DNA of 64,000 nucleotides from a virus (Duplodnaviria > Caudoviricetes): the IMG/VR virus record IMGVR_UViG_3300015374_000002, positions 1 to 64,000 of that record; one strand, 5' to 3'. The notes under the pieces are model-generated. The model saw only the letters and a list, made by a program, of their open reading frames with translations. It was not told the DNA's origin and ran no database searches. The translations under genes were made by a program, and so were the position numbers. This document shows, piece after piece, positions 5,133 to 53,051 of the stretch; position 1 is the first letter of the stretch; each line of letters begins with the position of its first letter.

Positions 5133-5237
5133 CGGTCCTCCTGGTGGTGTCGCTCCATGCCAGACTACAGTCATTTAGCGCCACAGACAAGGGGGGGCGC
5201 TCCTGCTCGCCGACGTCGCCGCACATGCGCTCCAAAC

Positions 5238-5275
5238 AAACAACGCCCGGAGGCTAAGCTCTCCGGGCGTTGTTT
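5238..5275 (-). terminator. intrinsic terminator after major capsid gene
   Basis: 15-bp inverted repeat aaacaacgcccggag/ctccgggcgttgttt just past the stop at 5294. Confidence 0.8.
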
Positions 5276-5293
5276 GCGTTTCCTGGTCGAACC

Positions 5294-7172
5294 TTACGAC
5301 GGCGTGGTAAACGCGCCGACGACGAACGACTCAGGTCGGTCAACTACGAGGCCCAAGCGCTCCTCACATCTGCTCTCTGTTACCTCCCGCATCTGAGTGC
5401 GGGCGGCCAGGTCATTTCTGCCTGGCTCTACGTCTTTTCCATCGACGTAGGTCGGACTGTATCTTCAACTCCAGATCCACCCCGGCTATACCGGCCCGGA
5501 CGGACCTCTTGAAGTTGCCGCACGCACAAGTCTCTACGGACGCCCCGGTACGGGTTGCCTCGGTATTCCCCACGATTTTGGAGGGGTTCACCGATACAGT
5601 GCGGTTTTCACTGACACGTCACCGTGTCAGGCACCCAGATTGAGTGTGATGGCGTTGCGCTCGAACATGTCTCGGTTCTCAGTGCTGCATGTCTGTTACC
5701 TCTCGCCACAACAAGGACGAGTGGCCGGGTCGTTTCCGCCCGGCTCTGCACCTTTTCCATCGATGCAGTTCGGACTGTATCTTCGGCTCCAGTCCCGTCC
5801 GGCTTACACTGGCCGGGCCGGTCCTATCGGAGTCGCCTCGCGCACAAGTCTCTACGGAGTCCCCAGTGCGGGTTCCCTCGGTATTCCCCAGAAGTGGTCT
5901 CTATGCAGTTAGCGGCGGGGTTCACCGATACAGCGAGGTTTTCACTGACACGTCACCGTGTCAGGCGGCCAGCTCATATTCGACCGCGATGTTGATCTGT
6001 TCCCTGTCATACAGTTTGGCGCCGTACCCGAAGGCGCCCAGGAGGTATTGGCCTTCGTTCATGGCCGGGGTGGCGACGACATCCAGCCGCCACATGCGCT
6101 GCTCTGCCCCGATCGCGATGTTCATGACGAGGCGGTAGTGGCCGTCCTCGGTCATTTCGAGTTCGAGGTCTTCCCAGTCGAGCGGGTGGATGACGACGCC
6201 GGACGGGTTGAAGTAGGCGAGGGTCGCCTTGGTGATGGCCCGCCGGATTTGCGCGGTGAGCGGGTCGGCGCTGGATCCGGTGTAGGTCTGAATGCCGGGC
6301 GTGTTGATGATTCCGGTCAGATTGTCGCCGACGCCGTCGCCGTACAAAATCTGTTCGTCTTCGACCATCTTGATGCCGTCGACCAGTTCACGGTCGATAA
6401 GTCCGCGCATTCTCGGCTCGTCCGCCAGCGTCTGCTTGTGGACGTACATGATGTGGGCGATGGTGGCGAGCGGGTACGTGACCGGGGTGAGTGCGAGGTC
6501 GGACTTGGGCTTCAGTCCGTAGACGTCGGTCGGGCCTCCGGTCGCAGGTGAGACGCCGTCTGCAGCGGTGCGTTCGGGGACGACCGCCGCGTTGTTCGTG
6601 TAGCCGGTCTGGCGGATTCCGTAAAGGACGTTCGCGGTCGTGGTTTCCGCCGGGAATAGGTCGCGGACGCGGCCGGGGCGGAGCATTCGGGTGGTCCACC
6701 CGAGGTCTTGGGGGTGGCCCAGGGCGTTGATGTTCGGAATGGTTCCGGCCATCGAGCTGTAAATGTCTTTGCCTTCGAGGCGGCCGTCGAATGATGCGAC
6801 GGCGCCGACCTGGCGGAACCGGGATGCCTTCATTTCCTCCCACTCGTCGGAGTGGAGGAAGCGTTCGGACAGGGACTTGGTGGCCATCATTCCGGCGGCC
6901 TGCTGTGCCTGTTCGGTGGCGGCGGCGGGTGCGTCTCCGGCGGGCTGGTTGAGGAAGTCGAAGGTGCCGCCTGCCTTCTCTTCCAGCGTGATCATCCGCT
7001 GGATCTGTTCGGCTTCGGTGATGGCCTTCTCGTAGGCGGTGGCCTGTTCGGTGGAGATGGTGACGTTGCCGTCTTCGATCTTCCACGAGGTGGCGATGTC
7101 TTCGATCTGGGTGGCTTTGGCCTGAAGGGCGGAGTTCAGCTCCTTCAGGCGGGACTTGTCTACCGTGGGCAT
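5294..7172 (-). CDS. major capsid protein (HK97 fold), spliced: exons 5983-7172, 5643-5687, 5294-5372 (437 aa)
   Basis: HK97-type capsid sequence (..ILYGDGVGDNLTGI..). The missing C-terminus is restored in frame by removing two introns: ..QINIAV|STENRDMFERNAITL|RCEERLGLVVDRPESFVVGAFTTPS*. Confidence 0.92.
5373..5642 (-). ncRNA. group I intron 2 in capsid gene (270 nt)
   Basis: U at 5' splice site, terminal G; GGUG pairs CACU (P1) and AUCUG pairs CAGAU (P10); same R/S core as intron 1. Confidence 0.88.
5688..5982 (-). ncRNA. group I intron 1 in capsid gene (295 nt)
   Basis: Exon ends in U, intron ends in G; IGS GCCGC pairs with exon GCGGU (P1) and GCUG with CAGC (P10); R-like GUAGAGACU and S-like GAAGAUACAGUCCG. 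Confidence 0.88.
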
Positions 7173-7702
7173 GGATGCTCCAGGCGAACGGCGGCACGTC
7201 TCACGCTCGGGGGGGTTCACGTGGCGTTTCCGCTAACCACGGGGTGGTGGCTGCCGTTCGCCCGGTCAGCACCGGGACGACACGATCATGAGGACCGTAG
7301 ACCAGGACAGATGCTAAGGTCGCGGGCTGCGTCGATGAATTTTCAAGATTTCGTGCACGCGCACCTGTACGTAGCGTTACTCGGACACTACTGTGTGACC
7401 TCAGCGCACGACTCAAGGGCGGCGGCCGGGACAATGGGCCGTCGCAAGGGACACGGCGACGTGTCCCCGTGACGGCCAGACCCGGGGCGATCGTCGGGAG
7501 TCGGGGGCCGCGCTGCGAACCGTCATACTCCGGGGGGAGATCCGCCAAGGGGGTGCGGATGGCGGCGTGCAGGGCGGCCCCTCGCGCCTTTCTGCCGGGT
7601 CCGTGCACCGGCGGAGCATGCCCAGGTCGCCGGAGGGCACGTTCGGGGATTGCCTGCGCCACATCCCCCCGAGGGTGTTGTAGGCAATCCCCGTGAAGGG
7701 GC

Positions 7703-9415
7703 TCACAGGCGGCGTGCGGAAGCCTCCGCCAGCGCCCGGTAGCCGCGCGCCAGAAGTGTCGGGTCGATCGTCTTGGTGTCCGGCCGGGCTGATGGGGCGG
7801 TGGAGTCGGATGCCACGATCGGCTCAGAGGGGGCGTCGTCCAGTTCGTCGTCGGCCTGCTTCGGCCGGGCGTCGATCTCCAGTCCGGCCGCCTTCAAAAC
7901 CGCCACCAACGACTCCACCGCGCCGAGCAGGCGGCGTTCGTTGGCCGCCGACAGGACACGGCCCGCCTTGGTCTGCGGCGCGTGTGTCAGCCAGGCTTTC
8001 ACGCCGGAGGTGACGTCCTCGATCTGGGAGGGGAAGGGCAGCATCTTCTCGCCCGTCTCCTCCTGTCCGTCCACCGACACCAGCAGTTCGACCGGTTCCG
8101 GTTCGGCCAGGGCGATCGTCTCCGACGTCGTCTCGCCGCCGACGCTGTAGGGCACCTCGAACGCCTTGGCCGCGCCGTCCTCGGCGTAGACGTTCAGTAC
8201 GGCGTGGTCCGGCCAGGTGCCCATCACCTCTATGTGCACCGCGTTGGCGAAGGTCTTGGCCGCCTCCTGCCGGATCTGCTCGCGCAGCTCTTCGTAGGTG
8301 CCGGGCAGGTGCGGGAACAGGGTGGACTCGATCGTCTCCGCCTGGTCGTCCTTCTTGCCCGCGTGGGAGGTGGCTTTGAGCTTCTCCCATTCGGCGACCG
8401 CCTTGGCGGCCTTCGCCTGGGTGTCGGGGTTGACGCCGTCGCCGCCGCGCGCCCACTTCTTCACCGTGGCGATGGCGATGGGGATGGCCCGGTCCAGCGG
8501 GGTGCCGCGCTTCTCGTGGATGGAGCGGGCGATCTCCCGGATGTAGGCGGGTAGTTCGCCTGCCTTTTCGACCCAGTTCTGCTTGGGGGAGCGGTTCAGG
8601 CTGGCACTGGAACCCTTCCCCTCGGTGCTGCCGTCACCGTCGTTGTCGGCGTCACCGTCGGCTTCCTGGTCTTCTTCTCCCGGTTCCGCCGCCTCATCCT
8701 CTTCGGCGTCTTGGTCGGCTTCTTCCTCATCCGCCTCATCCGGGTCTGCGTCGTCGTCGGGCTGCTCCGGTACGGCCGCCTCGTCCAGCAGTTCGTCGTC
8801 GGGCACTGCTTCCGCTTCGGCGTCCAACTCCGTCAATTCCTCGACGTCCAGCGTCTTGACCGCCAGCGTGGACGACATGCTGTTCGCGCCGAAAAGCACC
8901 GGCGAGTATTCGAAAAGGTCAATCTCCTTGATGCGGCGTACGCCGTCCTTGCCCCGGGTGGACTTGCCCGCCGGGACGCGGTAGCCCACCGACCATTCGC
9001 ACTCCGGGCCGAAGAACTTCACGTTCTGGTAGGCGTCGGAACCTTCCTTGGTGGCGAGGTTGTACTGCGTCTTGACGTAGAGGGCCCCGGCGCCCTGCGG
9101 CCACGCCTGACCGTCCTTCGTCTGAGCAGGTAGACGTGAATCGCCCGGCATCCACTCTTCGATGACCAGCGTCTTACTGGCCCATCGATGCCAATCGTGG
9201 TGAAAGATCCCCTTGGGGGTGCGCGTCTTCAGCGTCTTGGCGTAGGCGCCCGGCTCAATGATGTCGTCGTCATGGTCGCGGACCCCGGTGACGGACACGA
9301 TCGCCTCGACCACGCCGGTGGCGTCGTCGGTGTCCAGCAGGCCGACATCGGGTGCGGTCGCCGCAGCCTTGCGCTCCAGCCCGCCCCGTCGTTGTTCTTC
9401 CGTGGCAGTGGACAC
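7703..9415 (-). CDS. HK97-family prohead (capsid maturation) protease with C-terminal extension
   Basis: DDDIIEPGAY, IFHHDW, WSVGY, IDLFEYSPVLFGAN motifs; directly upstream of capsid gene. Confidence 0.9.
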   Translation of the reverse strand: MSTATEEQRRGGLERKAAATAPDVGLLDTDDATGVVEAIVSVTGVRDHDDDIIEPGAYAKTLKTRTPKGIFHHDWHRWASKTLVIEEWMPGDSRLPAQTKDGQAWPQGAGALYVKTQYNLATKEGSDAYQNVKFFGPECEWSVGYRVPAGKSTRGKDGVRRIKEIDLFEYSPVLFGANSMSSTLAVKTLDVEELTELDAEAEAVPDDELLDEAAVPEQPDDDADPDEADEEEADQDAEEDEAAEPGEEDQEADGDADNDGDGSTEGKGSSASLNRSPKQNWVEKAGELPAYIREIARSIHEKRGTPLDRAIPIAIATVKKWARGGDGVNPDTQAKAAKAVAEWEKLKATSHAGKKDDQAETIESTLFPHLPGTYEELREQIRQEAAKTFANAVHIEVMGTWPDHAVLNVYAEDGAAKAFEVPYSVGGETTSETIALAEPEPVELLVSVDGQEETGEKMLPFPSQIEDVTSGVKAWLTHAPQTKAGRVLSAANERRLLGAVESLVAVLKAAGLEIDARPKQADDELDDAPSEPIVASDSTAPSARPDTKTIDPTLLARGYRALAEASARRL

Positions 9416-41640: not shown

Positions 41641-41948
41641 CCGCCCAGGGTGGTAGGCAGCGGCCGGTAGCGTCGCGGTCTAACCGCATCATCCTTTCGC
41701 TGACTCAACCGTGGAAGAAGACGATCACGCCGGTTGCTGCGGTGGCACCTGCTACATTGATGCGCGGAGCGTCGTTGCCCGAAATGCCGAACCCCGGGGA
41801 ACTTCCCAGGCTTTGCCGGGGCGTACTGAAACATCTGATGGCAGCCTTATCAAGGGCAAAAGTAGTAAGACCCGCGATTGACTGCTAATTGGACTAATAG
41901 GGAAAACTCGTCGTCTGGGCGGGCAACGGCGCTCCGCCTTCTTTTCGA

Positions 41949-42020
41949 AGCCTGAGGGGGGATCGAACCCCTGAACCGACGGCTTTGCAGGCCGCCTCCC
42001 GCGCCAGCGAGAACCCAGGC
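41949..42020 (-). tRNA. tRNA-Cys(GCA)
   Basis: Cloverleaf, anticodon loop CUGCAAA, U73. Confidence 0.8.
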
Positions 42021-42244
42021 TATGTATTCAGACGTATGGCTGCCGCCCATACGATCAGGAGGACCAGGGCCGCCAATTTGATGAACGTCCACACGCCGCG
42101 CTTGGCGTCCTGCTCCATTTTCGGAAGTGCGGCCAGAGTACCCTGCCATCTGCGCCACAGGTCCAACATCACCTGGAATCGTCTGCCGACGATGAATAGC
42201 ATCATTCCGACGATGATGAGCAGCAGGACCCATTTGTGTGCCAA
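42020..42244 (-). CDS. small membrane protein
   Basis: Two TM segments; GGGAG RBS. Confidence 0.6.
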   Translation of the reverse strand: MAHKWVLLLIIVGMMLFIVGRRFQVMLDLWRRWQGTLAALPKMEQDAKRGVWTFIKLAALVLLIVWAAAIRLNT

Positions 42245-42474
42245 GTCTCACTCCCGCAGGTCAGAGGACTGCAAAGCGCCTCCGCCAACGTACGCGCGGA
42301 CGTCTCCGAATGTGGGGCGTTCAGTGTCATCGGGTCGCGTCGAATCGTACGGCGCCGCCCGGCTGCGACTGCTCCAGGTCCACCACGGCAGCCAGAAATC
42401 CGGCGGCGTCCAACTCTCCTCGCTGCAACCGCGCGACCAGATCGGACGCGTCCAGAATCACCACTTCGTTCATG

Positions 42475-42558
42475 TGCGCCAGGAGAGATTCGAACTCCCA
42501 ATGCCCGGAAGGGCCACAGCTTTACAGGCTGCTGAGCGACCAACTGCTCAACTGACGC
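42475..42558 (-). tRNA. tRNA-Tyr(GTA)
   Basis: Loop CUGUAAA, long variable arm. Confidence 0.9.
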
Positions 42559-42559
42559 T

Positions 42560-42647
42560 TGGGGTGACCGACGGGACTCGAACCCGCATGAACCTTTCGG
42601 CTCCGGGGGTTCACAGCCCCCTTCCTCAACCAATTCGGATCGGTCAC
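42560..42647 (-). tRNA. tRNA-His(GTG) with long variable arm
   Basis: Loop CUGUGAA, C73+CCA, extra arm GAGCCGAAAGGUUC. Confidence 0.8.
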
Positions 42648-42649
42648 AG

Positions 42650-42721
42650 TCGGCCTGGAGGGAATCGAACCCACACCTGATCTTTAGGAGAGATCTGCTC
42701 GGTCCTTCGAGCTACAGGCCG
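42650..42721 (-). tRNA. tRNA-Arg(CCT)
   Basis: Loop CUCCUAA. Confidence 0.85.
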
Positions 42722-42730
42722 TGCCGCCGG

Positions 42731-43072
42731 TTACTTCGCCAGGCGGCTCGCGGTACGCCGCGCCGCTTCCGCCGAGTCGGGCGACGCCCTGAACACGTTG
42801 ACCTCGTAGACGTCAACCTGCTCACCCAGCACCGGGAGCGTCTCCAACGTCCGCACCGTGGCGACGCCCGCATCACGCGCTTCGACGACGAAGGTCGCTT
42901 GCACCGCCGTATTGGCGGGGTCTCCCACCCAGGTCAGGTGCATAACGTTCGGCACCACGTCCCTGCCGGGGGGCAGAGACGACAGCCTGGTGCGCGCCTC
43001 CTCCGCATCCGCCTTCGTCGCGAAGCCCCCCAGGATCAGTTTGACGTGCCAATTCTGCATGTCAGTCACCAC
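42731..43072 (-). CDS. hypothetical protein
   Basis: 113-aa ORF between tRNAs. Confidence 0.6.
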   Translation of the reverse strand: MVTDMQNWHVKLILGGFATKADAEEARTRLSSLPPGRDVVPNVMHLTWVGDPANTAVQATFVVEARDAGVATVRTLETLPVLGEQVDVYEVNVFRASPDSAEAARRTASRLAK

Positions 43073-43224
43073 CCATTCCCTCGCAAGATCTTGGCGCGTT
43101 CCTCGCTCCGCCGCAGCGCCTTGAAGCCGTACTTGTCGTCTTCCGCCACGGCCCTCTGGCGGCGCCAGATCTTCGGAGCCTTCTTCGGCTTGTCGTCCTC
43201 GCTCGCGCTCTTGCCGAATCCCAT
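43066..43224 (-). CDS. small basic protein
   Basis: MGFGKSASEDD...; GAGCGAC + AGGAGG. Confidence 0.6.
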   Translation of the reverse strand: MGFGKSASEDDKPKKAPKIWRRQRAVAEDDKYGFKALRRSEERAKILRGNGW

Positions 43225-43255
43225 GCGTTCCTCCTGTGGTTGTGTCGCTCTGACG

Positions 43256-43326
43256 TACCCGGTGAGGGAGTCGAACCCCCTCCTTCGCCTTGTAAGGGCG
43301 TTGCTCTCCCGTTGAGCTAACCGGGC
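43256..43326 (-). tRNA. tRNA-Val(TAC)
   Basis: Loop CUUACAA. Confidence 0.85.
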
Positions 43327-43369
43327 TTGACCATACACCAAACAGCGTACAGTCATTTAGCGTTCAAGT

Positions 43370-43804
43370 CTAGGTTGTTTTGTGATCGTGACCGCAACCG
43401 CTGACCAGCGGCGGCACCTGAACGCGGACGACTTGTTCTCGATCGCCATAGCGGATCTGGATGAGTTCGTTCAGCGATGCCTTACCGGCCCGCTTCGACG
43501 CCTTGTCCTCGCCGAGCAGGACGGCGGCCAGTTCGTCAAAGGTCTGATTGACGCGGGCGACCGCGTGACGCATCGCCGCTTCGGTCGCATCCGCCAGCTT
43601 GGCGACTTCGGCCTTCAGCCGGTCGTTGACCGCCTGGTCGGTGAGCTGGGGGATGCGGTCGATGAGCGCTTGCAGCGCCTTGCGTTCGGCGATCATATCC
43701 TTCAGGACGCCCCTGGCCTCACTAGTCGCCTCCCGCAGGCTCTCCTCTGTCGTGATTGCCGATGAGATGTCGTCTGGCCGCTGCTGACGGCGTTTGGTTC
43801 CCAT
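43370..43804 (-). CDS. hypothetical coiled-coil protein
   Basis: ORF starting right after tRNA-Val 3' end. Confidence 0.6.
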   Translation of the reverse strand: MGTKRRQQRPDDISSAITTEESLREATSEARGVLKDMIAERKALQALIDRIPQLTDQAVNDRLKAEVAKLADATEAAMRHAVARVNQTFDELAAVLLGEDKASKRAGKASLNELIQIRYGDREQVVRVQVPPLVSGCGHDHKTT

Positions 43805-43805
43805 G

Positions 43806-43878
43806 TAGTCGCGGCAGGATTTGAACCTGCGACCTTCGCTGTGTCGAAGCGGTGCTCTACCAGCTGAGCTACACGACC
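43806..43878 (-). tRNA. tRNA-Val(GAC)
   Basis: Loop UCGACAC (C33). Confidence 0.85.
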
Positions 43879-44020
43879 TTTTGTGGTCGAACCCGGATCC
43901 CGGCATGCAGGGTAGTCCCTTGCGTTCCCTGTCTGCCGTCGGCGGGCCCGGCCGGTCGGCCCAGGCTTTCAGGGGGCGATACAGCCGTGGGTATCGCTAG
44001 GTTGGTCCGGGTTCGACCAG

Positions 44021-44093
44021 CACCGGTGGGAGGGTTCGAACCCCCGGCCTTCCGCTTTGGAGGCGGCTGCTCTACCAACTGAGCTACACCGAT
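44021..44093 (-). tRNA. tRNA-Trp(CCA)
   Basis: Loop CUCCAAA, G73. Confidence 0.9.
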
Positions 44094-44199
44094 CGGGCGC
44101 GAGTGAGGTATCGCGCAGCTTTTTGCAGGACTTCCGGATCGTCGCTCCTGACGATGAAGGCCGACGCCTGAGACGGGATCCAGGCGTCGGCCCGCTGAG

Positions 44200-44273
44200 T
44201 GGCGGGGGCAGGATTTGAACCTGCGACCTCTGGGTTATGAGCCCAGCAAGCTACCGAACTGCTCCACCCCGCT
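44200..44273 (-). tRNA. initiator tRNA-fMet(CAT)
   Basis: Three G-C pairs in anticodon stem, 1:72 mismatch. Confidence 0.9.
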
Positions 44274-44283
44274 ACGTCCCATC

Positions 44284-44634
44284 CTACTTGGGACGCTCCA
44301 CTACGTGGAGATCCTTTAGTGCGTCCTCGATCGCACGGTTCGTCGTCGCCGTCTCAATGACGGCGACACGCTGCTCATGCTCTACGAGGCTCAGGCGCCG
44401 ATCGGCATAGGCGTCGGCCACCTGCTGCAACGCGTGGTCACGGTCGTCGCCGGTCGGCCTGGCGGCCAGCCAGCGTTCCATCTGCCGGGAGCGCCGCGCG
44501 TCCTGGATTACCTGCCTCTTCCGCTTCGCGTGGTCGATCTTCTCGGTCATCCACGGAATAGCCACAACGATCACAATTACGGCTATGGCCAGCCACAGGA
44601 TGGCGAATGCCGGTAGAGCTGCCTTCATCATCAC
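44284..44634 (-). CDS. membrane-anchored protein (DUF1707-like C-terminus)
   Basis: N-terminal TM; DDRD.A...A.AYAD.RL...E...R pattern. Confidence 0.65.
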   Translation of the reverse strand: MMMKAALPAFAILWLAIAVIVIVVAIPWMTEKIDHAKRKRQVIQDARRSRQMERWLAARPTGDDRDHALQQVADAYADRRLSLVEHEQRVAVIETATTNRAIEDALKDLHVVERPK

Positions 44635-44668
44635 TCATCTCCTTCGGGTGGGTCGCTCTCCACCAACG

Positions 44669-44742
44669 TGCCGCCGACGGGATTCGAACCCGCAAAACCC
44701 CAGATTGAAAGTCTGGTGACTCTACCCTTCGTCCACGGCGAC
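44669..44742 (-). tRNA. tRNA-Glu(TTC)
   Basis: Loop CUUUCAA. Confidence 0.85.
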
Positions 44743-44754
44743 CAGGGACTTACG

Positions 44755-44826
44755 TACTCCGCGCGGGGATCGAACCCGCACCTCCTGATTGAGAATCAGG
44801 TATCCAGACCACCAGACCAGCGGAGC
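44755..44826 (-). tRNA. tRNA-Glu(CTC)
   Basis: Loop UUCUCAA. Confidence 0.8.
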
Positions 44827-44892
44827 TTGTAGGGCCAGGCAGCGCATACCCAGATCACCCCTCCGATTCCTGGGGATGGCGCCTGACCCTTC

Positions 44893-45408
44893 TCACGCAA
44901 CAGTTGCCGACTCTACTCGGAACCATTCGCGAGCCTGTGCGAAATGCTTGGCCGATACACCATGCTGCCACCCGGTGTGAATCAGCCGGAAGTCGCCGAC
45001 GCCCGGATGCCCTTTCAGCCACACCTTGTCACGCCTGGTCAGCTCGTCATCGAACCAGACGAACGGCCGCCCCTGCACGAACTTCGCCACCCTCGGCGTC
45101 TTGCGGTGCACCCGGTAGTCATCCCCCGGCTCCACCGCCTCCCGCATGTCGATGACCGGCAACTGAGGCAGCCCCAGAAGGGGAGCGATATGCGCGTTTG
45201 CGTCGTGGCTCCACATGGTCGCCCACACCAGGTCGGCGCCGACCGTCTCGGCCAGCTCCAGCAGCACCGGTCCATGTTCGGGGTTGAGCAGGACGTTGTA
45301 CGTCTCGCCCTGGCAGGTCAGCCTGTGCGCCTGCCACTGCGGACCGGGACGCCCGAACGGTGCGAGCACACCATCCACGTCCAACAGGATCAACTTGTCC
45401 ACGTGCAC
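44893..45408 (-). CDS. HAD-superfamily phosphatase (RNA-repair-associated HAD type)
   Basis: LLDVDGVL, LVWATMW, PFVWFDDE. Confidence 0.85.
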   Translation of the reverse strand: MHVDKLILLDVDGVLAPFGRPGPQWQAHRLTCQGETYNVLLNPEHGPVLLELAETVGADLVWATMWSHDANAHIAPLLGLPQLPVIDMREAVEPGDDYRVHRKTPRVAKFVQGRPFVWFDDELTRRDKVWLKGHPGVGDFRLIHTGWQHGVSAKHFAQAREWFRVESATVA

Positions 45409-45470
45409 ATCCTCTCCTTCGCGCGGGGTCGCTCTTCCCGCACCCGCGAAGACGTAGACCGTCTTCGCCG

Positions 45471-45543
45471 TACCCCCGCCGGGATTCGAACCCGGATTTC
45501 GACGCTTAAAAGGCGCCTACTCTGCCAATTGAGCTACAGGGGC
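45471..45543 (-). tRNA. tRNA-Lys(TTT)
   Basis: Loop CUUUUAA. Confidence 0.9.
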
Positions 45544-45546
45544 ATG

Positions 45547-45690
45547 TCACGCAGGATTGGCGATCACCATCCCGCAGTCCTCACAGTGCGGCGGCCAGAC
45601 CAGCCACCCCATCCACTCCTCCGAACGATCCAGTCCCTCCGGAACGATCCTGCCGCCGCACTGCTGACAGTCGGGATAGAACCAGGTCAT
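45547..45690 (-). CDS. small Zn-ribbon protein
   Basis: CQQCG ... CEDCG; GGAGG RBS. Confidence 0.6.
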   Translation of the reverse strand: MTWFYPDCQQCGGRIVPEGLDRSEEWMGWLVWPPHCEDCGMVIANPA

Positions 45691-45704
45691 AGACCCTCCG
45701 TACG

Positions 45705-45777
45705 TGCGCCGTGAGAGATTCGAACTCCCAACCATCCGGGTAGAAACCGGCCGCGCTATCCATTGCGCCAACGACGC
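45705..45777 (-). tRNA. tRNA-Arg(TCT)
   Basis: Loop UUUCUAC. Confidence 0.9.
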
Positions 45778-45805
45778 GAACCTTTCACGATCCGAAACGA
45801 TCGTT

Positions 45806-45988
45806 TCATTCCATCGCCACGCCCGGTCCTAGAACCGGGCAGAACGACACTGGCACCAGCCGCCCGGTGGCCATGTCGCTGCACGCGAGGCAGATCTCCG
45901 CCGGGATCGTGTGGCGGCTTTCCCCGTCGGGCCGGTAGTCGATCGACTCGTGCCAGCCCGACTCCGGGTCGTCCGGGTCATAGCCCAT
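45806..45988 (-). CDS. small hypothetical protein
   Basis: MGYDPDDP...; overlaps upstream gene. Confidence 0.5.
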   Translation of the reverse strand: MGYDPDDPESGWHESIDYRPDGESRHTIPAEICLACSDMATGRLVPVSFCPVLGPGVAME

Positions 45989-46385
45989 ATTTCGCCTCAT
46001 CCTTCACGTACACCATGTAGGCGATCACGCCCGCTTCGTAGGCGGCCCGCCGAGCGTCGGCGTCGGTGTCGTACTTGGTGCCGTCCAACGGGTGCCTGAT
46101 GATGTCGCAGCCGCCTTCGGGCTTGTACTTGATCTGTCTGATACTCAGCTCGATCTTGCCGTCGTCGGCTGCGACCACGGACGGCGAGGACATCACCTTG
46201 CACAGTCGCGGGAACGACACTCCCCACTCGGCGTGAGTCACTATCGGCGGCCCGCCGTCGGCGTAGGTCGGGAAGCGGCCGTAGGGGGCTTCATTGAAGG
46301 TCCAGATGCGGTAGCGACCGTCGTGCCAGTCGTATTCCTGGCCCTGCATCGGCGGGTAGTCGGTAACGTTCTGTGGCGTGTCCAT
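45978..46385 (-). CDS. hypothetical protein
   Basis: Promoter TTGACC-18-TATCTT, GAGCGAC + GGAGG. Confidence 0.75.
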   Translation of the reverse strand: MDTPQNVTDYPPMQGQEYDWHDGRYRIWTFNEAPYGRFPTYADGGPPIVTHAEWGVSFPRLCKVMSSPSVVAADDGKIELSIRQIKYKPEGGCDIIRHPLDGTKYDTDADARRAAYEAGVIAYMVYVKDEAKYGL

Positions 46386-46457
46386 GGGGTCCTCCGTGGG
46401 GGTTGGTCGCTCTCCAACACCCCAAAGATACATCCATTTAGCGTCTTAGGTCAAGGG

Positions 46458-46548
46458 CGGAAAATGGAGGACTCGAACCCCAGGGCCGTTCACACCAGCC
46501 CTCATCCGGTTTAAATCGGCGGCCACCTCCTTGGTGGCGTCATTTTCC
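46458..46548 (-). tRNA. allo-tRNA-like 8/4 tRNA, 8-nt anticodon loop AUUUAAAC
   Basis: 8-bp acceptor GGAAAAUG/CAUUUUCC, 4-bp T stem, 6-bp D stem, long variable arm, G73. Confidence 0.7.
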
Positions 46549-46574
46549 CCCACCGTGTTGAGGGGTGGGTCCAG

Positions 46575-46658
46575 CGGAAGGCGGAAGACTCGAACTTCGG
46601 CCGCCGCCGACGGCCACGCGGATTCCAGCCGCGTCCCGGCACCTGCCGGTCACCTTCC
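46575..46658 (-). tRNA. 8/4 tRNA-Ser(GGA)
   Basis: 8-bp acceptor, 4-bp T stem GAAG/CUUC, 5-6-bp D stem, loop CUGGAAU, G73. Confidence 0.8.
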
Positions 46659-46659
46659 A

Positions 46660-46735
46660 TGGTCCTCGGAGCAGGAGTCGAACCTGCCGTCGCCCGGTTA
46701 TCAGCCGGGTGCCTTCACCGCTTGGCCACCCGAGG
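46660..46735 (-). tRNA. tRNA-Ile(GAT)
   Basis: Loop CUGAUAA, ACCA end encoded. Confidence 0.85.
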
Positions 46736-46739
46736 AAAG

Positions 46740-46824
46740 CGGAGAGGGAGGGTATCGAACCCCCGCCGGTGTGACCCGGGCAGCGGCGTAGCAAGCCGTC
46801 CCATTACCTCTCTGGCACCTCTCC
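46740..46824 (-). tRNA. tRNA-Ser(GCT)
   Basis: Loop UUGCUAC, long variable arm. Confidence 0.85.
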
Positions 46825-46925
46825 ACGATACTTCCATCTAGCGCCTGCCGGTGCTACCTTGGAGTGGTACGCCCCTGGTCCGGCTCTGCACCGCATCCCG
46901 CCAGGGGCACGGCCATTTCTGGGAC

Positions 46926-47024
46926 TGGTGCCGACCCCGGGATTCGAACCCGCCCTACCGCCTTGGCAAGGCGATGTGCGACCGCTGACACTTCACCCAC
47001 AAGTTCCGTGACCGGTGGACCGAC
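46926..47024 (-). tRNA. tRNA-Gly(GCC)-like with displaced 5' acceptor strand
   Basis: D, anticodon (UUGCCAA) and T arms plus ACCA are intact; the best acceptor partner lies about 24 nt upstream. Confidence 0.55.
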
Positions 47025-47073
47025 GACTCGGGTGTGGACGGGGCCGGGGCGACCATCCTCCGGTCACGGAAAG

Positions 47074-47143
47074 AGCCCAACCCCGGAGTCGAACCGGGCA
47101 GGCCGTTCGTACCAAGAACGGGTGCACACCAGGTGCGAAGGGC
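47074..47143 (-). tRNA. tRNA-Thr(GGT), atypical
   Basis: Loop UUGGUAC; U.U mismatches in acceptor. Confidence 0.65.
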
Positions 47144-47192
47144 AAACGGGTAGGGGTGTCCGGGCCGTGAACGCCCGGCCCGGACACCACCG

Positions 47193-47265
47193 CTCTGGGA
47201 TCAGGAATCGAACCTGAGCAAACCGGAACCAAAATCCGGCCGCCGAGCCAGCACGGCATCCCAGA
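47193..47265 (-). tRNA. tRNA-Gln(TTG)
   Basis: U1-A72, loop UUUUGGU. Confidence 0.8.
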
Positions 47266-47270
47266 ATGCG

Positions 47271-47341
47271 AGCCCAAGGGCGGAATCGAACCGCCTCGAA
47301 CGCCTTACGGGGGCGCTGCTCTGCCAGTGAGCTACAAGGGC
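47271..47341 (-). tRNA. tRNA-Thr(CGT)
   Basis: Loop CCCGUAA; U.U mismatches in acceptor. Confidence 0.75.
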
Positions 47342-47356
47342 GTGACCCCGAAGGGC

Positions 47357-48034
47357 CTACATGTCCGGCCGGGGCTGAAACTCCGGCCTGGAGCTGATCT
47401 CCTCAACCCAGTCCGACAGGGAGATCTCTTCGCCGGAGCCACTATAGAAGGCGAGATCGTCCACCTTCGCATGCAGTTCCACGTCATGCGGCATTGGCAG
47501 GATGCCTTCTGCTTCGGCGGTGTCGCGGTGCTTAACGACCGCGAAGGCGAGGCGGAACAGGGTGTCCTGGTTCCGTTTGCGCTTGTCCGGATTAGGTTCT
47601 GCCGGATGCCTGCCGTTCAGCTTGTTCGGCCCGGAGGCTGCGCGGATCCGTTTGATGTCGGAATGCCGCAAGCTGATGATCTGCTTGTCTTTGAGGATTT
47701 TCGTACGCCACAGGTCATATTCGCCCTTGGCGGCGAAATACTTGCGTTTCCCCTCTTCGCCCAGATTCCAGCACTGCTGATGGTAGGAGTCCATCTCTGC
47801 TCTCCGCGTCGCGATCTGGTCGTCCAGGGCACGCAGCAGACGAACCAGAGCCTGCTCGGTCCGTTCGATCAGCGACGGCCCGGAGAGCATCCCCCAAAGC
47901 TGTTGACGCTTTTCGGTCACCGAGACGTCGTCGTGGCGACGAGGGTCGGGATAGCCGATGTTTTGACGGATCAGCAGGTCGAAGCCTTCAGGCTCCAGCT
48001 CTTGAATGGCGGCAAGGCTCACGGGGATGGCCAT
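47357..48034 (-). CDS. hypothetical protein
   Basis: 225-aa ORF, lower GC than flanks. Confidence 0.7.
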   Translation of the reverse strand: MAIPVSLAAIQELEPEGFDLLIRQNIGYPDPRRHDDVSVTEKRQQLWGMLSGPSLIERTEQALVRLLRALDDQIATRRAEMDSYHQQCWNLGEEGKRKYFAAKGEYDLWRTKILKDKQIISLRHSDIKRIRAASGPNKLNGRHPAEPNPDKRKRNQDTLFRLAFAVVKHRDTAEAEGILPMPHDVELHAKVDDLAFYSGSGEEISLSDWVEEISSRPEFQPRPDM

Positions 48035-48109
48035 GGGTGGCGTGTTCCTTCTTCCGGGGGTTGCCGTCCCGGCGCCGGACAAGACACCGGGACGATCCTG
48101 TGTGGTGCG

Positions 48110-48182
48110 TGCGCCCGCCGGGACTCGAACCCGGATCATCCGCATCCTTAGTGCGACGCCTCTGCCATTGGGCCACAAGCGC
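48110..48182 (-). tRNA. tRNA-Leu(AAG), short variable loop
   Basis: Loop CUAAGGA; A34; no long variable arm. Confidence 0.75.
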
Positions 48183-48218
48183 TTCAGGACGGTTCTACAG
48201 GCCGCCACCGACAAAACG

Positions 48219-48287
48219 AGCCGCCCCCCGGAATCGAACCGGGCCTACCCCCTTACAAGGGGGGCGTCGCATCCATGGCGCGGCGGC
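48219..48287 (-). tRNA. tRNA-Thr(TGT), atypical D arm
   Basis: Loop CUUGUAA. Confidence 0.65.
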
Positions 48288-48297
48288 AGACGGAAGA

Positions 48298-48604
48298 GGG
48301 TGGCGACGGAAAGGATTCTGCAGCCAAACCGCCCAACCAGCCCGGCGGTCTCCTTCCCGTTCTTCTGTGGCTGTCCACGCCACCCCCGTGTGGACCCGGC
48401 GGGATTCGAACCCGCATCTCCGGCTCTCCCTATGACGCACACCGCCCCCGGACGGAGGTGGCCACCTCGTATCCGGATCGCGCGGTCACGCCCGATTGAG
48501 TTACGGGCCCTGGCAGATGATGGCGACGAGGGGGACAAAGCCTCCAAAGCGCCCAACCAGCCCGGCGCGCTCCCTCTCGTCCTTCTGCGGCTGTCCACGC
48601 CACC
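48298..48604 (-). repeat. two diverged copies of a structured ~87-nt element (48298-48385, 48519-48604)
   Basis: Shared cgcccaaccagcccggcg and ttctgYggctgtccacgccacc; each copy closed by a GGUGGCG/CGCCAYC stem. Confidence 0.75.
48391..48510 (-). ncRNA. 120-nt tRNA-Ala-like RNA (G3.U70 acceptor + T arm, non-canonical centre)
   Basis: GGGCCCG/CGGGUCC-A acceptor, GCGGGUUCGAAUCCCGC T arm, no recognisable anticodon loop. Confidence 0.6.
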
Positions 48605-48610
48605 ACCTGA

Positions 48611-48685
48611 GCTGTCGGGCGGAGAATCGAACTCCGGCCGCCCCTCGCGCGAGGAGAACGACCCTGCCACACGTCTCAACGACGC
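48611..48685 (-). pseudogene. degenerate tRNA (CGC anticodon)
   Basis: T arm and anticodon arm present; poor acceptor stem. Confidence 0.45.
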
Positions 48686-48878
48686 GACCCGACACCGTGA
48701 CGGTTCCTCCGGATCACCTCGGGAGCAGCCGACAAGCCCGAGAGGGCGGGAGCGACCCTATTCGGTACCCTTCCGTCGCGAGCCGGTGCGGACTCGAACC
48801 GCCGTTGACCGTCACCGGCCGTCCCCACTCGCGACGCGGGGACGGTCGGCCGCCGGAGTCGAACCGGCATACCCAATG

Positions 48879-48948
48879 CTCCCGGACCAGGAATCGAACC
48901 TAGAGACACAGGGGCCAGAACCCTGCTGACGGCCACCGCCATCCGGGA
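48879..48948 (-). tRNA. tRNA-Gln(CTG), short D arm
   Basis: U1-A72, loop UUCUGGC. Confidence 0.75.
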
Positions 48949-49010
48949 AGGAGCAGACCCGGTTGCAGCCGGGCCCGCCAATTATCCGCCTGCTCTACGG
49001 ACGGGCAAAT

Positions 49011-49439
49011 CTACCAGGAGTCCCACACGCCGAAGTGGCGGTGGCGCGGGTCCGGGGATTCGACGTCCCAGGCGGCCTGTACGGCATCCTGGGCGCCTCG
49101 CAGCATCTTGCCGACCTCCCGGCCAACGGCCCGATCGGCAGCGCGCAGGGCGCGTTCCTGACGGTTGGAGATGCCGCCGATCACGTGCCCCAGGTTGAAG
49201 GTACGCGGGTAGGTGCCCGCCTCCAGGCGGCGGGTCACCCGGTCCGGGCGCGGACGGTGCCCGGCGCGCTCAGCCTGGGCCAGCGCGGCGGCGCTGTAGC
49301 GCAGCGCGGACCGGATCTCGTTGGCGGTGCTCGGGTAGGTGGCACGCCACCAGGCGAAGATGTAGAGGCGACCGTCGGCGTCGTAACGCCGGGTGCCAGT
49401 GCGGTGGTTGTAGGGGACGTGGTGAACAGTACGGGACAT
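49011..49439 (-). CDS. hypothetical basic protein
   Basis: MSRTVHH... 142 aa, GGAG RBS. Confidence 0.65.
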   Translation of the reverse strand: MSRTVHHVPYNHRTGTRRYDADGRLYIFAWWRATYPSTANEIRSALRYSAAALAQAERAGHRPRPDRVTRRLEAGTYPRTFNLGHVIGGISNRQERALRAADRAVGREVGKMLRGAQDAVQAAWDVESPDPRHRHFGVWDSW

Positions 49440-49524
49440 TCGGACTCCGACGTGCGGGCCCGCCCCGGATGGGCAAGCCGTCTACGTCTCACCCGCCGTG
49501 AACATCACATTCGCCTCCTTCGCG

Positions 49525-49597
49525 TAGGGGTGGCCGGATTTGAACCGGCATCATCCGCATTTTGAATGCGGCGCCTCTGCCGTTGGACTACACCCCC
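49525..49597 (-). tRNA. tRNA-Leu(CAA), short variable loop
   Basis: Loop UUCAAAA; no long variable arm. Confidence 0.8.
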
Positions 49598-49598
49598 G

Positions 49599-49670
49599 TG
49601 CGCCGTCAGGGACTCGAACCCTGCTCTCTCGATTAAGAGTCGAGTGCATAACCATCCATGCTCACGGCGC
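49599..49670 (-). tRNA. tRNA-Lys(CTT)
   Basis: Loop CUCUUAA. Confidence 0.9.
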
Positions 49671-49778
49671 TTTCCGTCCGGCCGGTTAGCGTCGGCCTGC
49701 CGGACGATCCCTGACCCGCCCGGGGGACGCCAATCCCGCCGGTGCAGTATCAGGGCACCCCACCCAAGTGGGGTGTAG

Positions 49779-49849
49779 AGCCGTACCGGAGAGTCGAACT
49801 CCGCTCCCCGCGTTGGAAGCGCGGGACATCGCCACAATGCTTGTACGGC
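49779..49849 (-). tRNA. tRNA-Gly(TCC)
   Basis: Loop CUUCCAA, U73. Confidence 0.85.
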
Positions 49850-49850
49850 A

Positions 49851-49918
49851 TGGGGACCAGGCGGGGAATCGAACCCCGCTTTCCTAGGATTTCCGTGCCC
49901 TTTCCGGGGGCCTGGTCC
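49851..49918 (-). pseudogene. tRNA-like element lacking a proper anticodon arm
   Basis: Acceptor, D and T arms and CCA present; anticodon arm collapsed. Confidence 0.5.
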
Positions 49919-50084
49919 ACGGCGGGAAACGGCCCGGGTGCCCACGAGTGATCAGCTCGCAAACACTGACGGTATCCGTAGGGGTTTCCCCCTTTCCGAT
50001 CCGGTTCATCCCGCGTGCTCGACGACGCTCCGGATCCCCCTTCGCTGGCAACCCAGCTACTAAGTTCACCTGCACCGTCGTGCG

Positions 50085-50156
50085 TGGCTCCCCAGAGAGT
50101 CGAACTCTGTCCTCTGGATCTTCAGTCCGGCGCTCATCCCCATGAGCTTGAGAGCC
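50085..50156 (-). tRNA. tRNA-Phe(GAA)
   Basis: Loop CUGAAGA. Confidence 0.8.
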
Positions 50157-50370
50157 TTTCGATCTCACCCGGCCGCAGAAGCTAGTGGTCGGGTGTCTTG
50201 TTCTCGTCGTCTATGACGCGTGTGGCCGCTGCCGCTGTGGCATCCTTCTTGGCCGCTATCCGCTTATTGATCTCTCTTATGTCTGCCTCGATCTCACGCA
50301 GTTCGCGTGCCTTTCGTCCGAACATGTCGCCTCCTGGCTAGGGGGGTGTCAACCTGGCGGGGAATTTTCG

Positions 50371-50589
50371 TTACGGTGCCTGGTCGAAGTATCGGCGGCC
50401 ACGTTCGAACGCCGTCGTCCGATGTACGCCGTGCACGCCCTCCGTTGCCGCCAGGACGCGTCCCAGCGCCGTCTTGTAGGCGCTACGGGCGGTCGCCGCT
50501 CCAGGGAGTGGCCCGTCCGCGTTGTTGACTCTGGCGTCTTCACGGGCGATGTCAGCCAGCAGGTCTTCAACAAGCTTCTGTATGTCCAT
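50371..50589 (-). CDS. hypothetical protein
   Basis: GAGCGAC + AGGAG leader. Confidence 0.6.
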   Translation of the reverse strand: MDIQKLVEDLLADIAREDARVNNADGPLPGAATARSAYKTALGRVLAATEGVHGVHRTTAFERGRRYFDQAP

Positions 50590-50719
50590 GGTTCTCCTGT
50601 CGGGTCGCTCTCCCGTTGGGTGGTGGGCTGCTGTACAGCGCCGCCCACCAGGCGCTCCCCCGCACGGCCGTGCGGGGGCCGGTCACCCATACTCGATGAC
50701 TTTCAGGTGATTCCGGACG

Positions 50720-50791
50720 TACCCGCGACAGGATTCGAACCTGCATCCTCGACGTTCGTAGCGTCGCGCTCATCCATTGAGCTACACGGGC
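50720..50791 (-). tRNA. tRNA-Arg(ACG)
   Basis: Loop CUACGAA. Confidence 0.9.
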
Positions 50792-50910
50792 ATGATGCAC
50801 GACAGGGCCAGGGACTTCCGTCGCAATGCGTGTTACCGCTCTTCCAGCCCTGCCGTGCACGATCTCCTGGCCGACCACGCGGGCGTCTCACCCCGCGACC
50901 GGACCCCCAC

Positions 50911-51138
50911 CTAACCGGCCAGGTCGTTCTCACCGCCCAGTGCGGCGCATTCCGTGCACGGGCGCGTCCTCAGCGGACCAGGCCGCCAGAACAGGATCAG
51001 CGCCCCGAACGGCGGAATGATCGCCGCTATGGACGGGTTGCAGAACTCGTCCTCACCCTTGAAAATCGTTGGCTTCCACCAGCAGGTGAGCGTGGTGGGC
51101 GACCACCACATCAGGCGGCCGATGTTGAACTGCTTCAC
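50911..51138 (-). CDS. hypothetical protein
   Basis: 75-aa ORF, AAAGG RBS. Confidence 0.5.
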   Translation of the reverse strand: MKQFNIGRLMWWSPTTLTCWWKPTIFKGEDEFCNPSIAAIIPPFGALILFWRPGPLRTRPCTECAALGGENDLAG

Positions 51139-51165
51139 ACTCGCCTTTCGGATCAGCCGGGAAGG

Positions 51166-51339
51166 TCACTTCTTGTTGTTGATCTTTGCGCTACGGGCGA
51201 CCGTCCTGGCCCGCTCGTAATGCGCATCCGACTCCGCCTTGTCGCCGTCCAGCTCCGCGATGAAACCCTTCGCGGCATGCTTGGCGACCTGGTCAAGCTG
51301 CTTGTCGGTCAACTTCCCATACTCCGCATTGCCCGCCAT
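51166..51339 (-). CDS. hypothetical protein
   Basis: MAGNAEYG...; GAGCGAC + AGGAGG. Confidence 0.65.
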   Translation of the reverse strand: MAGNAEYGKLTDKQLDQVAKHAAKGFIAELDGDKAESDAHYERARTVARSAKINNKK

Positions 51340-51507
51340 GGGCGCCTCCTGTGAGACTCCCGAGTCGCTCAACCGGGAGAAGGTGCGGGTGCCGCTTCAC
51401 TACGGCCTAGGCCACGACCGACCGGCTTTCTCCGCAACGCGTACGCTTCGCCGACCAGCCTCCCAAGGGCCAGAGCCCGGGGTAAGGGTTCCCGGGCGCT
51501 CCCGCCG

Positions 51508-51662
51508 TCCCTGGTGCTGGATTCGAACCAGCAACTTCCGCCCCCGTATTCGGGATTACCCGGCCAGGTCCCCGCCCTGCCCGACTAGTACGGGCTGAAC
51601 GGTTTACCCCTGACAAACGGGCCCCGGCGGGACGATGCCTCTACCAATTGGGCTACCCAGGG
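51508..51662 (-). ncRNA. 155-nt tRNA-like RNA with ~88-nt structured insert in place of the anticodon loop
   Basis: Canonical 5' half (CCCUGGGUAGCCCAAUUGGUAGAGGCA) and 3' half (GCUGGUUCGAAUCCAGCACCAGGGA). Confidence 0.7.
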
Positions 51663-51695
51663 CTGGAGTGAGGCGTGATGTGCCTCACTCTCGCG

Positions 51696-51771
51696 TACCC
51701 GCAGCAGGATTCGAACCTGCACCATGCCCCACTCCGGAGGTGGGTGCCCTGTCCAGTTGGGCGATACGGGC
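51696..51771 (-). tRNA. tRNA-Arg(CCG)
   Basis: Loop CUCCGGA. Confidence 0.85.
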
Positions 51772-51831
51772 GTGCGTCAGATCGTGGACGCCTGTCGAGG
51801 GTCGAACCGGCTCACGATCTGACTTGCGACG
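51771..51831 (-). ncRNA. bulged-stem RNA with T-loop, copy 1
   Basis: GUCAGAUCGUG/CACGAUCUGAC stem enclosing GGUUCGA. Confidence 0.55.
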
Positions 51832-52032
51832 TCACGTGTCGTCGCCGTCCGAAGCGTACGGGTTCACCTGGTAGAGCTGCTCCCGAAGCTTGTCGTAGTC
51901 GAGAACGAGGGCCTCAGTTCGACCGTCACTGGGGATTCGCATGAGGACGGCATGCCCGTCCTCATCCCACCCCAACTCGTAGGGGTTGCCGACTTTGTCA
52001 TGACACGTTTTCCACGATCCACTGAACTTCAT
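51832..52032 (-). CDS. hypothetical protein
   Basis: AAAGGAGG RBS, 66 aa. Confidence 0.65.
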   Translation of the reverse strand: MKFSGSWKTCHDKVGNPYELGWDEDGHAVLMRIPSDGRTEALVLDYDKLREQLYQVNPYASDGDDT

Positions 52033-52056
52033 GCTGTCCCTCCTTTCTCTGTGACG

Positions 52057-52132
52057 TACCGCTGGCCGGAATTGAACCGGCGACCTTCAGATTGAGAATC
52101 TGACGACCCGAACCAGCAGAGTCTTCAGCGGC
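52057..52132 (-). tRNA. tRNA-Glu(CTC)
   Basis: Loop UUCUCAA. Confidence 0.8.
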
Positions 52133-52242
52133 CTTGTGACATCCGGACTCGAACGAGCCGGTACGTATGCCCACCGTACGAATTACCGCGCGGACCTTCG
52201 TACAGTGCGGTACCGCTGGGGAGTGCCACGCCCCCCGGGCCG

Positions 52243-52315
52243 TGCTCGCAGCAGGATTCGAACCTGCGGTCTCCTCCTCCGGAGGGAGGCGCCTTGTCCT
52301 CTGGGCCATACGAGC
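52243..52315 (-). tRNA. tRNA-Arg(CCG)
   Basis: Loop CUCCGGA. Confidence 0.85.
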
Positions 52316-52431
52316 GTGCGTTAGATCATGGGCGCCTGCCGGGGAGTCGAACCCCTCTACGACTTGGATGCGCATCCGCTGCCGCTTCGCCGGACCTGGA
52401 GTCGAACCGGATCATGATCTAACTTGCGACG
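52315..52431 (-). ncRNA. bulged-stem RNA with two T-loops, copy 2
   Basis: GUUAGAUCAUG/CAUGAUCUAAC stem (compensatory changes versus copy 1). Confidence 0.55.
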
Positions 52432-52447
52432 TTGTACACCGTCGCCG

Positions 52448-52522
52448 TGCCGCTGACCGGAATCGAACCGGCGACCTCCAGGGTGAAAGCCTGGCAACCC
52501 AACCAGCAGGGTCTTCAGCGGC
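52448..52522 (-). tRNA. tRNA-Glu(TTC)
   Basis: Loop CUUUCAC. Confidence 0.8.
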
Positions 52523-52560
52523 ATTGCCCGATTGCGGCTCGGGGCGGCCGTCGGACAACG

Positions 52561-52710
52561 TCAACTCTTCCCCTTGGAAGCACGGGCCGCGAGGCGCCTT
52601 TCGTAGTTCTGTTTGGCCCTAGCGTTCGACTCCCTAAGGTCCTTCCTCATCTGAGCTACGCCCTCGATCAGCACGACGACGGCGTCACCAACTGTCAACT
52701 TTCTGCGCAA
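52561..52710 (-). CDS. small hypothetical protein
   Basis: TTG start after AGGAGGTGATC. Confidence 0.5.
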   Translation of the reverse strand: MRRKLTVGDAVVVLIEGVAQMRKDLRESNARAKQNYERRLAARASKGKS

Positions 52711-52947
52711 TATGATCACCTCCTCCTGGTCATATTCACGATCGGCCCTCGGTCCCACCCCTGCGCGGCGCGTGTACACCACGCCGCACAGGCTCCCGAG
52801 GTCTCTCCGCCCCGTCCGCCGATCGCTAAGCCGCCTTCTGTCCGAGGGTGACGGCCCCCATACCCATGGGTGGACACTGTGCTGAGAGGGCCGCAGGTCC
52901 CCGCGTACGGCGTACCTGCGCTGCCAGGCCAAAGGACCCTCTCACCG

Positions 52948-53018
52948 CGCCTGCGACGGGATTTGAACCCGCGCCCCCCACGCTGACAACGTGGTGCTCT
53001 GCCTTGAGCTACACAGGC
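52948..53018 (-). tRNA. tRNA-Asp(GTC)
   Basis: Loop UUGUCAG, G73. Confidence 0.9.
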
Positions 53019-53051
53019 TTGCCGTGCAGGCGGTCACCCGCACGGGGATGG

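Follow-up and report, generated by a model that had tools for sequence, protein, structure and literature searches.

Two compact group I introns of the Cluster J mycobacteriophage family around a 45-nt exon in the predicted capsid gene of an uncultured phage

In 2013, Pope et al. described a family of group I introns in phage virion genes, present in the capsid gene of LittleE and in a tail gene of BAKA and Optimus, all Cluster J mycobacteriophages (PMC3706429). According to that paper, a U precedes and a G ends each intron, the 265-nt BAKA intron has no endonuclease gene, and splicing was proven by RT-PCR for the BAKA and LittleE introns and also by N-terminal protein sequencing for LittleE; an intron in the capsid gene of Tuc2009 is cited there as another case. 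Neighbouring group I introns are likewise on record. In Staphylococcus phage Twort, orf142 contains three; the second and third closely resemble each other, lie around a 23-nt exon and are associated with exon skipping (Landthaler and Shub 1999, cited in PMC10136302), and the 23S rRNA gene of Coxiella burnetii contains two around a 34-nt exon (also cited in PMC10136302). In the Zeta group of crAss-like phages, the capsid gene is described as lying in five pieces with multiple group I introns (Yutin et al. 2021, PMC7886860). Introns in capsid genes, pairs of similar introns enclosing a micro-exon, and capsid genes with several introns have thus all been published, and the novelty of a capsid location implied by the preliminary description of the present locus was overstated, the LittleE capsid intron and the BAKA and Optimus tail introns having been in print, with RT-PCR, since 2013.

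The locus analysed here lies on an 85,789-base viral contig (74% complete in CheckV), high in GC and derived from the rhizosphere, which represents an uncultured phage; the whole stretch of DNA that was analysed, the first 64 kb of this contig (64,000 nucleotides), is called the window. On its minus strand, an ORF opening with GTG at 7220 (alternative start ATG at 7172) ends at a TGA at 5963-5961 after 419 aa, the early stop that had been claimed. This unspliced ORF generated a hit on Phage_capsid (PF05065, E = 2.3e-25, from exon 1 alone) that covered only profile positions 23-242 of 280 in Pfam. Its upstream neighbour in the head module, also on the minus strand, is a prohead protease-containing ORF at 7703-9415 (Peptidase_S78, E = 4.1e-07 in Pfam). 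The closest capsid relative among cultured phages was the major capsid protein of Streptomyces phage Gilgamesh (43% identity in tblastn), and megablast against cultured phages with 5200-7300 returned zero matches.

Excision of two inserts, 5688-5982 (295 nt, termed intron 1) and 5373-5642 (270 nt, termed intron 2), joins three exons in frame, again on the minus strand: exon 1 at 5983-7220, with the 3′ end GCGGU; exon 2 at 5643-5687, whose 45 nt provide 15 codons in phase with both junctions; and exon 3 at 5294-5372, with the last 25 codons and the stop TAA at 5294-5296. The resulting gene of 1238 + 45 + 79 = 1362 nt reads ..IAV/STENR.. and ..AITL/RCEER.. across its two junctions (slashes) and has the C-terminus of intron-less relatives, as the preliminary description had anticipated. 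The restored C-terminal 41 residues aligned without gaps with five cultured-phage capsid proteins and with four intron-less metagenomic homologues (L012, L131, L133 and L134), and the C-terminus of the predicted spliced protein, including its exon 3 part, thereby aligned with nine full-length homologues. The alleles L134 (92% identical) and L131 (85%), to which the translation of exon 2 also aligns, are continuous across both intron sites and have the same C-terminal residues, and the more distant L133 and L012 are likewise continuous. As exons 2 and 3 together differ from L131 synonymously in 26 of 40 codons and non-synonymously in only 2, they have been kept as coding sequence under protein-level constraint. 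A terminator-like hairpin at 5237-5277 (minus strand) begins 17 nt past the exon 3 stop and is followed by UUUGUUUGG, a U-rich run; its folding energy was -36.7 kcal/mol (z = -5.9), and 0 of 200 shuffled sequences were equally stable, although the consensus terminator scan did not flag it.

The ends of both inserts follow the rule described for Cluster J, exons 1 and 2 each ending in T and both inserts in G, as had been noted. Because each intron and the exon after it share C as their first base, every boundary can be moved by one base with no effect on the spliced product; the exact boundaries given above were chosen by the U/G rule. The guides proved to be insert-specific, as the preliminary description had stated, with P1 and P10 complete for an insert's own exons and poorer for those of the other. 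In intron 1, GCGGU/CG pairs with UGGCCGC in P1 (7 of 7 pairs, guide at 5965-5971) and CAGC pairs with GCUG in P10 (4 of 4 pairs, guide at 5970-5973). The counterparts in intron 2 are CACU/CA with UGGGUG in P1 (6 of 6 pairs, of which only 4 are on the exon side; guide at 5632-5637) and CAGAU with AUCUG in P10 (5 of 5 pairs, guide at 5636-5640). When the partners were swapped, 2 of 5 and 3 of 4 pairs formed in P1 and 3 of 4 and 3 of 5 in P10. A U.G wobble, in which the U of the upstream exon faces a guide G, occupies the same aligned guide position in both introns.

The identification of both inserts as paralogous group I introns was upheld by core helices, guides and homology. The shared blocks reported earlier are real: the inserts align over their full length, with 76% identity in BLAST and 80.5% identity over 226 core columns. 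P2, P3, P4, P5, P6, P6a, P7, P8, P9, P9.1 and P9.2 were placed by hand and are all paired in both inserts. Among the 61 pairs compared between the two, 47 are identical, 8 are altered on both sides yet paired, 4 are altered on one side yet paired, and 2 are broken in one insert. The group I covariance search that had been suggested as a check gave a divided answer. Intron 2 matched Rfam RF00028 over the full model length with 34.9 bits (E = 5.2e-07), below the gathering score of 50, and intron 1, searched twice at E ≤ 10, did not match RF00028. As the BAKA intron, verified by RT-PCR, scored only 28.6 bits with the same model, lower than intron 2, the gathering threshold of RF00028 evidently misses this intron lineage. 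A search of the whole window at Rfam gathering thresholds returned tRNAs only. These belong to a dense array on the minus strand at 41947-55395, in which ARAGORN found 37 genes and Rfam 29 at the gathering score. Its tRNA-Arg(UCU) at 45704-45777 and tRNA-Ser(GCU) at 46739-46824 read AGA and AGC, which are the first codons of exon 3 and exon 2, respectively. At 41950-42020 (minus strand), an Rfam tRNA-Sec match of 47.8 bits (threshold 47) coincides with a tRNA-Cys(GCA) in ARAGORN and is probably not a selenocysteine tRNA, and a weak Rfam tRNA match of 120 nt (31.5 bits) at 48391-48510 (minus strand), where ARAGORN predicted no gene, could be a decayed or interrupted tRNA.

The absence of a homing endonuclease from the inserts, also claimed earlier, held: the five ORFs that overlap them matched no Pfam family at E ≤ 0.01, so that intron 1, like intron 2, has no ORF with a known domain, and searches with PF01844, PF13392 and PF02945 found no HNH or endonuclease VII gene on the incomplete 85.8-kb contig. 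Each intron contains an in-frame UGA on the minus strand, at 5961-5963 in intron 1 and 5627-5629 in intron 2, in the same structural place at the start of P2. Such in-frame stops are well known from the group I introns of coding genes and are regarded as keeping ribosomes out of the ribozyme (PMC3984707).

By sequence, both introns of the window belong to the intron family of the Cluster J mycobacteriophages BAKA and LittleE. In blastn against cultured phages, Cluster J mycobacteriophages were the only matches (30 records, 69.5-73.7% identity over the core), and the matches fell at the BAKA-type minor tail gene intron and the LittleE capsid gene intron; the alignment with BAKA spans P2-P9.1. 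As in BAKA and LittleE, a U closes the upstream exon and a G the intron, the host genes are late virion genes and the size is compact; BAKA, with the guide UGGCCGCC and the exon end GGCGGU, nearly matches intron 1 in both. Cluster J genes have one intron each, whereas the window has two placed 45 nt apart, and the LittleE capsid intron carries an endonuclease ORF, unlike either intron here. The capsid family, the insertion sites and the host lineage also differ, and splicing is proven in Cluster J but is predicted from sequence and fold here. In Twort orf142, too, a very short exon of one phage gene lies between similar group I introns, but these are of the IA2 lineage, different from that of the window, and the exon is 23 nt rather than 45 nt long; the P1/P10 guides of the window introns differ from each other, and exon skipping is reported for Twort. 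The Zeta group of crAss-like phages resembles the window in a major capsid gene cut by several group I introns, although those introns, in Bacteroidetes phages, were recognised by encoded endonuclease domains, in contrast to the window type of 265-300 nt without an ORF. The Coxiella 23S gene, as cited, likewise combines tandem group I introns with a micro-exon, but it is an rRNA gene of a bacterium, not a phage, and its introns are of different subgroups.

We consider it very probable that this HK97-type capsid gene is split by two compact endonuclease-free group I introns, each most likely removing itself from the late mRNA. The internal guide would pair with the end of the upstream exon to form P1, with the U.G wobble at the splice site, where free guanosine would cut; the guide would next hold the start of the downstream exon in P10, and the upstream exon would attack after the terminal G. 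The in-frame UGA at the start of P2 would meanwhile halt ribosomes before they reach the ribozyme core of either intron. As both inserts interrupt the frame-joined gene, full-length capsid protein would need two splicing events, in agreement with the preliminary description. Given their differences in P1, P10 and several helices, the two introns should react independently of each other and retain the 45-nt exon; in engineered tandem introns, differing P1/P10 elements suppressed exon skipping (PMC10136302), and inclusion of exon 2 is expected here for that reason. Splicing in this phage, its efficiency and the inclusion of the exon are in this sense predictions from the features described above.

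Since the window derives from a metagenome assembly, a repeat might have been duplicated artificially, but we give this explanation almost no credence. Identity between the two copies is no higher than 76-80%, both introns recur in a second assembly record (L130), and contigs from four runs (X1-X4) cover the two-intron region with 0 differences, although the window itself may derive from two of these runs. Single contigs of X1 and X2 bridge the whole region, and contigs of X3 and X4 bridge exon 2 and both flanks. The runs listed for the capsid-region sequence are DNA runs, and the intron-less joined form was absent from the four aligned to it. One joint in X4, from 5429 to 5763 (side 22, 10 other letters between), resembles another family member and was set aside. 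It is also improbable, in our estimate, that the inserts are decayed relics that no longer splice, leaving the capsid gene broken and either the phage defective or its capsid protein truncated at 5961. Such a reading would be compatible with splicing being inferred only, with the missing Rfam match of intron 1 and with a contig only 74% complete. Decay is, however, hard to reconcile with core helices that are all intact in both inserts and show compensatory changes, with the excess of synonymous over non-synonymous codon differences from L131 in exons 2 and 3 (26 versus 2), with the retention of the C-terminal 41 residues in 9 of 9 homologues, or with the identical sequence in contigs from four runs.

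More than one product could instead be made from the gene, the truncated protein from unspliced mRNA and, from exon skipping, a form shorter by 15 residues that would serve as a minor capsid or regulatory component. The preliminary description was right that skipping of exon 2 leaves the reading frame intact; in addition, both downstream exons begin with CAG, 3 of 4 pairs remain when the P10 guide of intron 1 is matched to exon 3, and skipping is reported for the similar tandem introns of Twort and Coxiella, as cited in PMC10136302. The differences between the introns in P1 and P10 are, on the other side, of the kind that suppressed skipping in the engineered tandems of that study, and the 15 residues are conserved in all homologues, with no relative lacking them, so we regard a functional set of products as about as improbable as decay. 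Two self-removing introns that yield a single full-length capsid protein remain the preferred reading.

The preliminary description had further proposed that a single intron duplicated or reverse-spliced 45 nt away and that its guide was then retuned. The paralogy and the distinct guides stood, but the sister grouping that such a local copy would produce was weak and conflicting between trees: FastTree placed introns 1 and 2 as sisters with a local support of 0.17, whereas maximum likelihood in IQ-TREE, from whose input three partial rows were dropped, paired intron 1 with the L081 intron (38% bootstrap) and did not recover the two window introns as sisters. Each has relatives elsewhere at 81-82% identity, compared with 80.5% to its partner, and a 28-nt P2 block common to both also occurs in L064 and L101, and hence is not unique to the pair. 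Comparison with other alleles of the capsid gene bears on the order of arrival. The capsid gene of L132 (67% identical) has one intron exactly at the intron 1 site, after ..GCGGU and in the same codon phase, and none at the intron 2 site, while both sites are empty in the closer alleles L134 and L131. Such patchy sharing of the intron 1 site is what an element that is mobile or has been lost repeatedly should show, and intron 2, whether derived from intron 1 or from another family member, probably arrived later than intron 1, as its site is occupied only here. In P3 and P9.1 the L132 intron is like intron 2, but in P8 and P9.2 it is like intron 1, a mosaic pattern that hints at exchange among intron copies. 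At L132:2305-2357, about 50 extra nt past the model end form an inverted repeat that precedes the true 3′ splice site.

The exons downstream of the introns also depart from those of the intron-less alleles. Exons 2 and 3 both start with CAG, owing to synonymous codon switches: where L134 and L131 have TCC (Ser) and CGC (Arg), the window has AGC and AGA. The CAG bases are those that pair in P10. Synonymous divergence from L131 is raised in exons 2 and 3 (26 of 40 codons, compared with 110 of 397 in the rest of the gene; Fisher p = 7e-06), and these exons (within 5294-5687) have 74% DNA identity to L131 and L134, compared with 85-86% in the two preceding 126-nt blocks, with the protein almost unchanged. 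The CAG switches and the raised divergence would fit either of two processes, co-conversion with a diverged donor or an adjustment of the exons to the guides.

The distribution of the intron family was surveyed in IMG/VR, where a search with the core motif retrieved 117 stretches. A covariance model seeded with both window introns and BAKA (termed R1) then found 196 copies in 120 sources, tallies that count loci rather than lineages because some sources duplicate one another or cultured phages. Intron 1 scored 309.6 bits and BAKA 248 bits, both being seeds, and LittleE scored 190 bits; the scores of the window introns are circular, as both seeded the model. No R1 copy was found in the intron-less L012, L131, L133, L134 and L135. 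Across 129 distinct copies, 95.5% of cells were paired, compared with 39-41.5% when the partners were slid by 1-3 columns, and 54 of 56 family pairs had two-sided changes, with 0 of 500 shuffles matching the observed values, in an alignment that was fitted to the model and therefore favours it.

Host genes were surveyed in 77 sources from the longest open frames beside the introns, which are not validated genes. Major capsid or head families were found in the flanking ORFs of 39 sources (29 by Pfam and 10 more by PHROGs), the Pfam families being PF05065, PF13252, PF25209, PF03864 and PF17236. Matches to tail proteins occurred in three sources (L002, L035 and L042) and phrog_13692, of unknown function, in another three, and the 32 sources with none of these mostly matched no family, two of them being nuclease-only (DUF559 in L114, HNH in L127). 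One branch of the family, lower in GC (48-49%) and with introns of about 248 nt, comprises L035, L042 and about a dozen near-identical members (L057, L067, L075, L077, L080, L094, L100, L105, L108, L121, L122 and L129), and the downstream part of its host gene matches the major tail protein phrog_4574. ORFs adjacent to introns match nucleases at L017:3258-3695, L114:3396-4346 and L127:276-914 (endonuclease VII, DUF559 and HNH, respectively); whether free-standing or intron-associated, these could possibly mobilise introns.

At nine single-intron loci, predicted splicing (from P1 and the model end) restores continuous capsid ORFs, with the sites at conserved motifs. At least two copies were present in 41 sources, always on one strand within a source, and multi-copy arrays on one strand within a few kilobases include L039 and L072 with five copies each and L064 and L059 with four each. 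Splicing is predicted to yield a PF25209-type capsid protein in L039, L072 and L064, and the five copies of L039 and of L072 lie within one capsid gene in each. The largest arrays are those of L090 and L115 (six copies each) and L103 (eight). Very short enclosed exons were also found elsewhere, of about 18 nt in L025, 39 nt in L072 and 42-44 nt in L014 and L060, in addition to the 45 nt of the window. Exon lengths at loci other than the window are approximate, since the automatic splice-site picker placed the 3′ end of window intron 1 off by one and left out-of-frame stretches in parts of L048, L064, L072 and L081; L090, L059, L027, L061, L089 and L116 were left out of splice-site prediction. 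With at least two copies in 41 sources, several of them around micro-exons, twin introns are a recurrent state in the family and not a peculiarity of the window.

In a tally of P1 over 174 rows, which is descriptive and had no chance control, most family copies have the guide GCCG(C), pairing with (G)CGGU; these include intron 1, BAKA and the L132 intron at the same site. A scenario that we put forward only tentatively, and hold to be rather unlikely as a whole, is that the pair is a snapshot of an endonuclease-free lineage spreading through virion genes by guide-directed insertion, through reverse splicing or an equivalent process. Intron 2 would then descend from a copy whose guide changed at three positions and which then reached a CACU site 45 nt further downstream, repeated events would build arrays of 3-8 copies, and the raised divergence and codon switches of exons 2 and 3 would be traces of this process.

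As a single case, the window adds little that is new in kind, and the broader lead, a compact endonuclease-free intron family concentrated in capsid genes and often in tandem, is of more interest. The literature searched contained no description of arrays of this family in the capsid genes of phages with high GC; further capsid introns may be given in Table S4 of PMC11878797 and in Supplementary Fig. 12 of PMC7886860. For annotation, gene callers will report a 419-aa capsid protein minus its last 41 residues at the present locus, and because the capsid genes of related contigs are cut into up to six pieces, capsid surveys of soil viromes will miss or mis-size such genes. For intron biology, the family provides many natural compact endonuclease-free introns in the most highly expressed late genes, often adjacent to one another and with different guides, and thus material for asking how such introns move and how tandem ribozymes avoid skipping the exon they enclose.
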